NCBI GenBank assembly: GCA_025544715.1
Contig: GCA_025544715.1_4109.2
Origin: Escherichia coli
GTDB lineage: Bacteria > Pseudomonadota > Gammaproteobacteria > Enterobacterales > Enterobacteriaceae
Strand: one strand, 5' to 3'
Length of the DNA stretch: 64,000 nucleotides
The translations under genes and the position numbers were made by a program. Shown here piece after piece: positions 47,527 to 48,030 of the stretch. Under the pieces are notes generated by a model. It had not been told where the DNA came from and did not search any database. It worked only from the letters and a program-made list of their open reading frames with translations. Numbering within the stretch: position 1 is the stretch's first letter; every line of letters begins with the position of its first letter.

Positions 47527-48030
47527 TTATTTTACTTTGACAGTACAGGTTACCTTTTTACCTTGGAACTCGACTTTTTGAACATATGAAACGTTACCCA
47601 AACGATTAACGAATGATTCCATTGCATTAATATTTGCTTGAATTACTGATGCATTAGTTCCACGTCCTGAAGTTTTCATTACAATATGTACATGTTTTCC
47701 TTCATCAAGGAATTTTTCAGCACTTTTTGCTTTAATCTGCAAATCATGCTCTTGTGTACCAAAGTTGAATTGAATCTCTTTAATACTCACGGCATTTTGT
47801 CGTTGTTTTTTAAGAGAAGCTTTTTCAGCTTGCTTCAACTCATATTTGTATTTGTTAAGATCTGTGATTTTGACAGCAGGTTCATCACCTGCACCAATAA
47901 CTACCAAATCCAATCCTTGATTTTCTGCTAAAGTAAGTGCTTTAGAGATTGCCATGACCTCACTTGCACCTTCCGTAACAAGACGTACAGTTTTTGCGGT
48001 GATTTCGTTATTGGCAATAATAGATTTCAT
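47527..48030 (-). CDS. infC: translation initiation factor IF-3 homologue
   Basis: Collinear with E. coli InfC over both domains: VRLV/GLDLV/EP-V/KKQ/KEIQF-GT-EHD-Q-K/FL-EG (from memory); 167 aa. Confidence 0.75.

Follow-up and report, generated by a model that had tools for sequence, protein, structure and literature searches.

We examined a 64,000-nucleotide stretch of DNA (hereafter the window) that is filed under Escherichia coli (GenBank assembly GCA_025544715.1, contig GCA_025544715.1_4109.2), and focused on an open reading frame (ORF) at positions 47527-48030. An earlier reading of the sequence, to which we refer as the original prediction, had taken this ORF for a phage-encoded homologue of the bacterial translation initiation factor IF3. 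No strand was given at that time; the ORF lies on the minus strand. The gene and the parts of its product are laid out as follows:

47527..48030, minus strand: coding sequence of the IF3 homologue, 504 nt, ATG to TAA, 167 amino acids (aa)
47818..48012, minus strand: IF3 N-terminal domain, residues 7-71 (Pfam IF3_N)
47791..47817, minus strand: interdomain linker rich in lysine and glutamine, residues 72-80, at the end of helix 58-79
47536..47790, minus strand: IF3 C-terminal, 30S-binding domain, residues 81-165 (Pfam IF3_C)

The phage protein belongs to the IF3 family

Hidden Markov models of both IF3 domains scored above their curated cutoffs, as the original prediction had proposed to check. 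The N-terminal model (PF05198) was matched over profile positions 2-69 of 70, with an E-value of 5.8e-16 and 58.9 bits against a cutoff of 26.9, and the C-terminal model (PF00707) over positions 1-84 of 86, with an E-value of 8e-14 and 51.8 bits against a cutoff of 34.8. The window protein was also recognised by the NCBIfam infC equivalog TIGR00168 (E 7.5e-32, 110.4 bits against a cutoff of 60) and aligned from residue 1 to 167 with positions 1-167 of the 168-position profile of PHROG 9787, a family labelled 'translation initiation factor' (E 6e-71, 238.7 bits). At the sequence level, it matched the E. coli and Thermus thermophilus IF3 chains of ribosome complexes in the PDB with E-values of about 3e-17. 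The resemblance to IF3 is far above chance, and the Pfam, TIGR00168 and PDB matches agree in confirming that the 167-aa ORF is an IF3 homologue. The short motifs on which that assignment had been based (VRL, GLDLV, EP-V, D--KY-YE, KKQ, KEIQF--GT-EHD-Q-K and FL-EG) are all present in the translation.

We then considered the predicted structure. An AlphaFold2 model, for which the window protein was aligned with 32 homologues from databases, had a mean predicted local distance difference test (pLDDT) score of 87.7 over the 167 residues. In the model, the N domain is folded as strand-strand-helix-strand-strand (strands 14-19 and 22-27, helix 28-37, strands 41-46 and 52-56) and is followed by a long helix (residues 58-79), with pLDDT falling to 69 in linker residues 71-80; the C domain is folded as strand-helix-strand-helix-strand-strand. 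When the model was compared with the PDB using Foldseek, the best 25 matches were all bacterial or mitochondrial IF3s, ribosome-bound chains among them. Full-length template modelling (TM) scores ranged from 0.69 to 0.78 (9a5a_B, 0.78; 9ss1_F3, 0.73; 5lmn_X, 0.69; the last two ribosome-bound). Taken by domain, the C domain gave a TMt of 0.84 against 1tig, and the N domain values of 0.76 against 1tif and 0.81 against 6o6d. The predicted model thus superposes on ribosome-bound IF3, with two alpha/beta domains joined by a long, lysine-rich helical linker, and the two-domain architecture expected by the original prediction was recovered.

The gene is shared by a group of jumbo phages

Escherichia phage 121Q (genus Asteriusvirus, 348.5 kb) shared 99.4% identity with the 4.5 kb around the gene; for about 20 further genomes of jumbo coliphages and Salmonella phages, the value was 96-98%. 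The protein itself was 100% identical to gp47 of 121Q (YP_009101641.1), which is annotated as 'translation initiation factor IF3', and to its counterparts in SP27, slurp01, Sharanji and phAPEC6. Orthologues are labelled IF3 or infC, and the label 'hypothetical protein' remains in some records (PBECO4 in GenBank, RaK2, CRJP21 and the SD-x Salmonella phages). Compared with gp47 and its orthologues in PBECO4, SP27, slurp01, Sharanji, phAPEC6, RaK2, GAP32, CBB, Munch and XbC2, all within PHROG 9787, the window holds the same gene in the same order, with no difference.

Several publications mention the gene. IF-3 was named in CBB, GAP32, 121Q, PBECO4 and RaK2 (Buttimer et al. 2017), a listing of huge-phage translation genes included IF1 and IF3 (Al-Shayeb et al. 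2020), and phage IF3, mentioned together with KTSC, was suggested to serve ribosome rescue or to support phage translation (Iyer et al. 2021). A 2025 paper on phage Sharanji names the IF-3 gene and notes that its function 'cannot be definitively stated'. At the level of the original prediction the gene is therefore already known, from existing annotation, a PHROG family and mentions in print. What we add here is the selection acting on it, its residue pattern, its ATG start, its consensus promoter and the conserved block formed by IF3, a ClpS-like gene and a KTSC gene.

Database entries that resemble a phage IF3 are not all of one kind. Contigs of 'Acinetobacter phage MD-2021a' carry the bacterial order thrS-infC-rpmI-rplT, and the tblastn match there is not a phage gene. 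In the case of Pseudomonas phage SC_8_H2H8_2017, IF3 stands at the end of a contig with almost no other annotation, and its phage status could not be judged. An IF3 that is 73% identical to the window protein and labelled 'Escherichia coli' lies on a 359-kb contig, which probably represents the genome of a jumbo phage that was included in a bacterial assembly.

Core IF3 residues are retained in a divergent background

With respect to bacterial IF3 (InfC; TIGR00168; E. coli b1718; PDB 5lmn_X and 8jsg_A), the likeness lies in the two domains, the helical and lysine-rich linker, and a similar size and isoelectric point (9.45 for the phage protein and 9.54 for E. coli IF3). In the alignment, identity to E. 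coli IF3 was only 31%. Twelve positions were invariant in phage and cellular IF3s (in E. coli numbering I19, R25, D52, P63, K72, K94, E95, D106, K110, F117, G121 and R133), and Y75 and G132 were nearly so. Four of these E. coli residues, Y75, D106, K110 and R133, correspond to Y63, D96, K100 and R123 of the phage protein and are conserved in the phage family, with Y63 located just upstream of the linker; the phage C domain also retains F107 and G111 (phage numbering). In E. coli, IF3-K110L fails to bind 30S subunits, and Y75N (infC362) impairs start-codon selection (PMC7145577).

We next compared basic residues and insertions. The C domain of E. coli IF3 contains eight arginines. The window protein keeps R133 and has lysine in place of R112, R116 and R129; R168 is also a lysine there but variable across the phage family, and the remaining three are considered below. 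Overall, the phage protein contains 4 arginines and 21 lysines, compared with 15 and 21 in E. coli IF3, a shift from arginine to lysine that fits the 31-35% GC content of the region. Relative to bacterial IF3, the phage protein has two additional residues in the linker and three in a C-domain loop, and an N-terminal tail of about 11 residues is absent. The two-residue linker insertion was common only to the IF3s of the Rak2-like phages, Vibrio phage 2.275.O._10N.286.54.E11 (MG592671; hereafter 2.275.O) and Agrobacterium phage Atu_ph07 (490 kb, MF403008).

The gene is maintained by selection and of old origin

An intact IF3 ORF of 166-173 aa was found in every relative examined. Pairwise ratios of non-synonymous to synonymous substitution rates (dN/dS) were about 0.04-0.17 (0.043 with ph0011, 0.075 with Ecwhy_1, 0.15 with Turkey5 and 0.16 with RaK2), and the phAPEC6 orthologue differed by five synonymous and no non-synonymous changes. 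These substitution patterns reveal strong purifying selection on the phage IF3 gene in several genera of phages.

Recent capture from the host was excluded by the 31% identity to E. coli IF3 together with the absence of the bacterial operon context. The same two observations, low identity and no thrS-infC-rpmI-rplT surroundings, argue for an old phage gene that has been maintained. E. coli infC starts with ATT and lies in that operon, whereas the phage gene starts with ATG, has its own consensus promoter and is accompanied by ClpS-like and KTSC genes. The AUU start and the operon define how the bacterial gene is regulated, not the protein family, and the membership of the phage protein in the IF3 family stands. 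Within the lineage of Rak2-like phages, Vibrio phage 2.275.O and Atu_ph07, the shared linker insertion and gene order point to one old acquisition.

Two other groups of phage translation genes serve for comparison. The IF3s of metagenomic huge phages (LR756511, LR756500 and LR756501), which were proposed to intercept or redirect host translation (Al-Shayeb et al. 2020), are likewise phage-borne and have two domains. In contrast to the protein studied here, they score 85-100 bits per domain rather than 52-59, and neither the linker insertion nor any Clp, KTSC or topoisomerase II (topo II) neighbour is present; they are probably separate acquisitions. Large phages also carry bS21, a further small and basic initiation component whose presumed target is the 30S subunit of the host (Mizuno et al. 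2019; Al-Shayeb et al. 2020). The bS21 protein is unrelated to IF3, is a ribosomal protein present in stoichiometric amounts rather than a recycling factor, and is not encoded at the locus in the window.

The gene has a consensus host-type promoter and an ATG start

Two expression signals were located directly upstream of the coding sequence:

48075..48103, minus strand: sigma-70 consensus promoter TTGACA-N17-TATAAT (-35 at 48098-48103, -10 at 48075-48080; 12 of 12 positions matching)
48041..48044, minus strand: Shine-Dalgarno (SD) core GGAG, 10 nt before the ATG, read from the sequence

The -35 hexamer overlaps the TGA stop codon of the preceding 64-aa ORF. Sites of the form TTGACA-N17-TATAAT with at most one mismatch occurred 18 times in the window against 1.9 expected (about 10-fold), all of them on the minus, coding strand (3974, 4350, 7345, 8104, 13410, 14909, 15817, 16376, 17867, 20178, 22254, 28174, 31106, 32315, 38485, 48075, 48271 and 61502). 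Four of the 18 are perfect (13410, 15817, 48075 and 61502). This enrichment shows that consensus host-type promoters are a real feature of the phage genome. In the tRNA region, the site at 7345 shares its full 29-mer with that at 8104, and the 29-mers of 3974 and 4350 are almost the same, which suggests duplicated promoter cassettes.

Both hexamers of the IF3 promoter are unchanged in phAPEC6, ph0011, Ecwhy_1, Turkey5 and Munch, and the spacer between them has fully diverged in Turkey5 and Munch. Weaker promoters occupy the same place in RaK2 (TTTACT-17-TATAAT), GAP32 (TTGACT-16-TACAAT) and XbC2 (TTGACG-17-TACCAT). Upstream of IF3 in Vibrio phage 2.275.O lie a terminator-like hairpin and, after it, TATAAT boxes. 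A literature search for promoter or transcriptome data on phAPEC6 returned only articles that mention this phage, not its own paper.

The spacer of the IF3 promoter also contains an inverted repeat, AGAAC-N4-GTTCT (48085-48098), whose arms are kept in ph0011 and Ecwhy_1 with different central 4 nt and which is absent in Turkey5. The window has the repeat only once in perfect form. With up to one mismatch allowed, 6 sites were counted against 2.2 expected, a number that 5 of 100 shuffles reached, and enrichment is thus not clear. The repeat could be an operator or could be due to chance.

In the case of the translation signals, GGAG stands upstream of the IF3 start in all Rak2-like relatives compared. 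Eight Rak2-like relatives start the gene with ATG and the Vibrio phage with TTG, and E. coli infC begins with ATT. The AUU start makes translation of host infC self-limiting, since IF3 discriminates against AUU.

IF3 lies in a conserved block with ClpS-like and KTSC genes

The genes around IF3 that are relevant here are the following:

40472..41884 and 41935..43899: topo II subunits
46351..46896, minus strand: KTSC-domain gene, 181 aa, Pfam KTSC 51.9 bits, third in the block
46968..47513, minus strand: ClpS-like adaptor gene, 181 aa, Pfam ClpS 24.7 bits against a cutoff of 23 over residues 74-144, PHROG 15940
48100..48294, minus strand: 64-aa ORF upstream of IF3, PHROG 15132 (E 1.3e-37), no Pfam match
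48318-48908, minus strand: ORF of about 190 aa, PHROG 16501, 'structural protein' in 121Q, no Pfam match
48968..50311: Dda-type SF1 helicase

The ATG of the ClpS-like gene follows the IF3 stop codon after 13 nt, and an AAGGA motif lies in this gap; this arrangement suggests that the two genes are probably co-transcribed. The ClpS-like protein has an N-terminal extension of 73 residues with no family match, and its Vibrio phage counterpart scores 66 bits. An Rfam scan of positions 46000-49000 at E<=1 found no structured RNA, only a chance snoRNA match (E 0.44, under the gathering score).

The original prediction placed the gene inside a replication module, between topo II and Dda. This holds loosely, as four genes separate it from topo II and two from Dda. 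The immediate partners, however, are the ClpS-like and KTSC genes, which are not replication genes. Counterparts of the 64-aa and the ~190-aa ORFs always lie between Dda and IF3 in this phage lineage, and the order Dda, ~190-aa ORF, ~64-aa ORF, IF3, ClpS-like, KTSC and, further on, topo II is kept in 121Q, RaK2, GAP32, XbC2, Munch and Turkey5. Vibrio phage 2.275.O, with an IF3 of only 38% identity, keeps this order as well, except that a bS21 gene (Pfam Ribosomal_S21, 48 bits; L006:4515-4760) is inserted exactly between IF3 and ClpS; this phage thus has two 30S-acting initiation components side by side.

In Atu_ph07, IF3 directly follows a gene for a ClpX-like ATPase (zf-C4_ClpX and AAA_2 domains) and has topo II next to it. 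On the far side of the record junction there is a ClpS adaptor at a distance of about 4 kb and a short ThrRS-like ORF at about 6 kb (L012:2673-3932, L015:1-2574). The ThrRS-like ORF recalls the bacterial thrS-infC neighbourhood.

We considered whether linkage between IF3 and Clp genes is a general rule among phages and rejected this, because the IF3s of the unrelated huge phages LR756511, LR756500 and LR756501, and that of MT835512, have no Clp or KTSC neighbours. As the linkage is confined to the lineage with the linker insertion, it may represent inherited gene order rather than functional coupling.

Initiation signals of the phage are of the ordinary type

According to the original prediction, a phage copy of IF3 could reprogram initiation during infection, an idea that we regard as speculation. 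Among 26 annotated neighbouring genes, 24 start with ATG, one with GTG and one with TTG, mostly with SD motifs. These counts ruled out a deviant use of start codons for which a less strict IF3 would be needed, and the ordinary starts nearby give no sign that the phage needs altered start-site rules.

The window also contains a cluster of six tRNA genes on the minus strand (7068-10010), comprising Asn-GTT, a Met/Ile2-type CAT tRNA, Ser-GCT, Arg-TCT, Ser-TGA and Gly-TCC. The CAT tRNA (7166-7244) was considered as a phage initiator and rejected: G1 and C72 are paired, the anticodon stem (AACGA/TCGTT) lacks the three G:C pairs, and the tRNA is of the elongator-Met or Ile2 type.

A selectively maintained IF3 outside host feedback is the favoured explanation

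We consider it likely that gp47 of the 121Q-like (Asteriusvirus) jumbo coliphages is a genuine, selectively maintained IF3, made from a host-type promoter, which acts on the host 30S subunit outside the feedback that limits the host factor. Under this reading, host RNA polymerase would transcribe the gene, probably early and jointly with the downstream ClpS-like gene. On host 30S subunits, the product would occupy the site normally taken by IF3, with the C domain on the platform and P-site face and the N domain towards the initiator tRNA. It would keep 30S free of 50S, aid recycling and speed the selection of canonical AUG and SD sites, which are the sites that the phage genes use and the kind that normal IF3 favours. 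Because it starts with AUG rather than with the AUU of infC, phage IF3 would escape the feedback that limits host IF3, and an active phage protein would in turn tighten the AUU feedback on host infC. The net effect would be an IF3 supply that is raised and under phage control through the long infection of a jumbo phage. The presence of bS21 next to IF3 in Vibrio phage 2.275.O, which puts the gene in translation-related company, speaks for this explanation.

Several points weigh against it. No member of the Rak2-like family has a basic residue corresponding to R99, R131 or R147 of E. coli IF3, and E134, Y107 and Y70 are replaced throughout the phage family. In published mutagenesis, the arginines of the C domain reportedly contribute to 30S binding and mRNA handling (Petrelli et al. 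2003), and their partial loss suggests that the activity may be altered rather than simply supplementary. The domain scores of 52-59 bits, compared with 75-124 in other phage IF3s, also indicate an unusual divergence. The proposed release from autoregulation through AUG draws on textbook knowledge of infC, and early timing is inferred only from the sequence of the promoter. Finally, a literature search on phage IF3 returned annotation-level mentions and no experiment, so we infer 30S binding and activity for gp47.

The six residues replaced across the family, together with the insertions in the linker and the C-domain loop and the low identity to host IF3, would also suit an IF3 of altered specificity or with a dominant-negative effect. 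Such a protein would proofread differently on the host 30S subunit or block initiation on it, and could cause host shutdown or a bias towards phage messages. We regard this as unlikely, because the best-documented residues for fidelity and binding, Y75 and K110, are kept, the changes of R112, R116 and R129 to lysine preserve charge and fit a genome of 31-35% GC, and the surrounding phage genes share host-type ATG and SD signals; moreover, we found no sequence feature that would let a modified IF3 distinguish phage from host mRNA. Ribosome rescue or reactivation, in which phage IF3 would free idle ribosomes in slow-growing cells (hibernating 70S or 100S particles, or 30S subunits held by RbfA or hibernation factors), follows the direction suggested by Iyer et al. 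(2021). In line with it, E. coli IF3 releases RbfA from 30S subunits and requires Y75 to do so (PMC7145577), a residue conserved in phage IF3, and the related phage Sharanji was reported with a protein of the S30EA/HPF type. However, rescue belongs to what IF3 normally does rather than being a mechanism of its own, and the sequence does not separate it from the explanation that we favour; as a role in its own right we give it only a slim chance.

Some 'phage' IF3s in the databases, such as that on the Acinetobacter phage MD-2021a contig, are host-derived genes or host contamination, and the gene in the window could in principle be a functionless passenger of this sort, picked up by chance and decaying. 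The probability of this is negligible, and the idea is effectively refuted by selection and synteny: dN/dS is low and the ORF intact throughout, the place of the gene, its promoter and its neighbours are shared by phages ranging from those of Escherichia to those of Xanthomonas and Vibrio, and the gene has neither close identity to host infC nor its operon context.

A bolder reading concerns the block as a whole. IF3, the ClpS-like gene and the KTSC gene, with bS21 added in the Vibrio phage and with ClpX beside IF3 and ClpS about 4 kb off in Atu_ph07, might form a cassette that replaces the host factor. In that case, the AUG-started phage IF3 would repress host infC through the host's own AUU feedback, the ClpS-like adaptor would deliver host translation components, possibly including host IF3, to ClpAP for degradation, and the initiation machinery would be rebuilt around a phage-specific IF3 with a modified surface for 30S and mRNA contacts. 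We consider this quite improbable.

IF3 governs the rate and accuracy of start-site choice as well as the availability of 30S subunits, and a virus with its own copy would hold a lever on this core process. An IF3 from an E. coli phage is a convenient test case, since infC362, IF3 depletion strains, reconstituted initiation systems and cryo-EM references exist. Testable predictions can be drawn from the consensus promoter, the ATG start, the retention of Y75 and K110 as opposed to the loss of R99, R131 and R147, and the tight linkage to the ClpS-like gene. If the explanation that we favour is correct, the 121Q-like jumbo phages would use such a copy to make IF3 under their own control while infection lasts.

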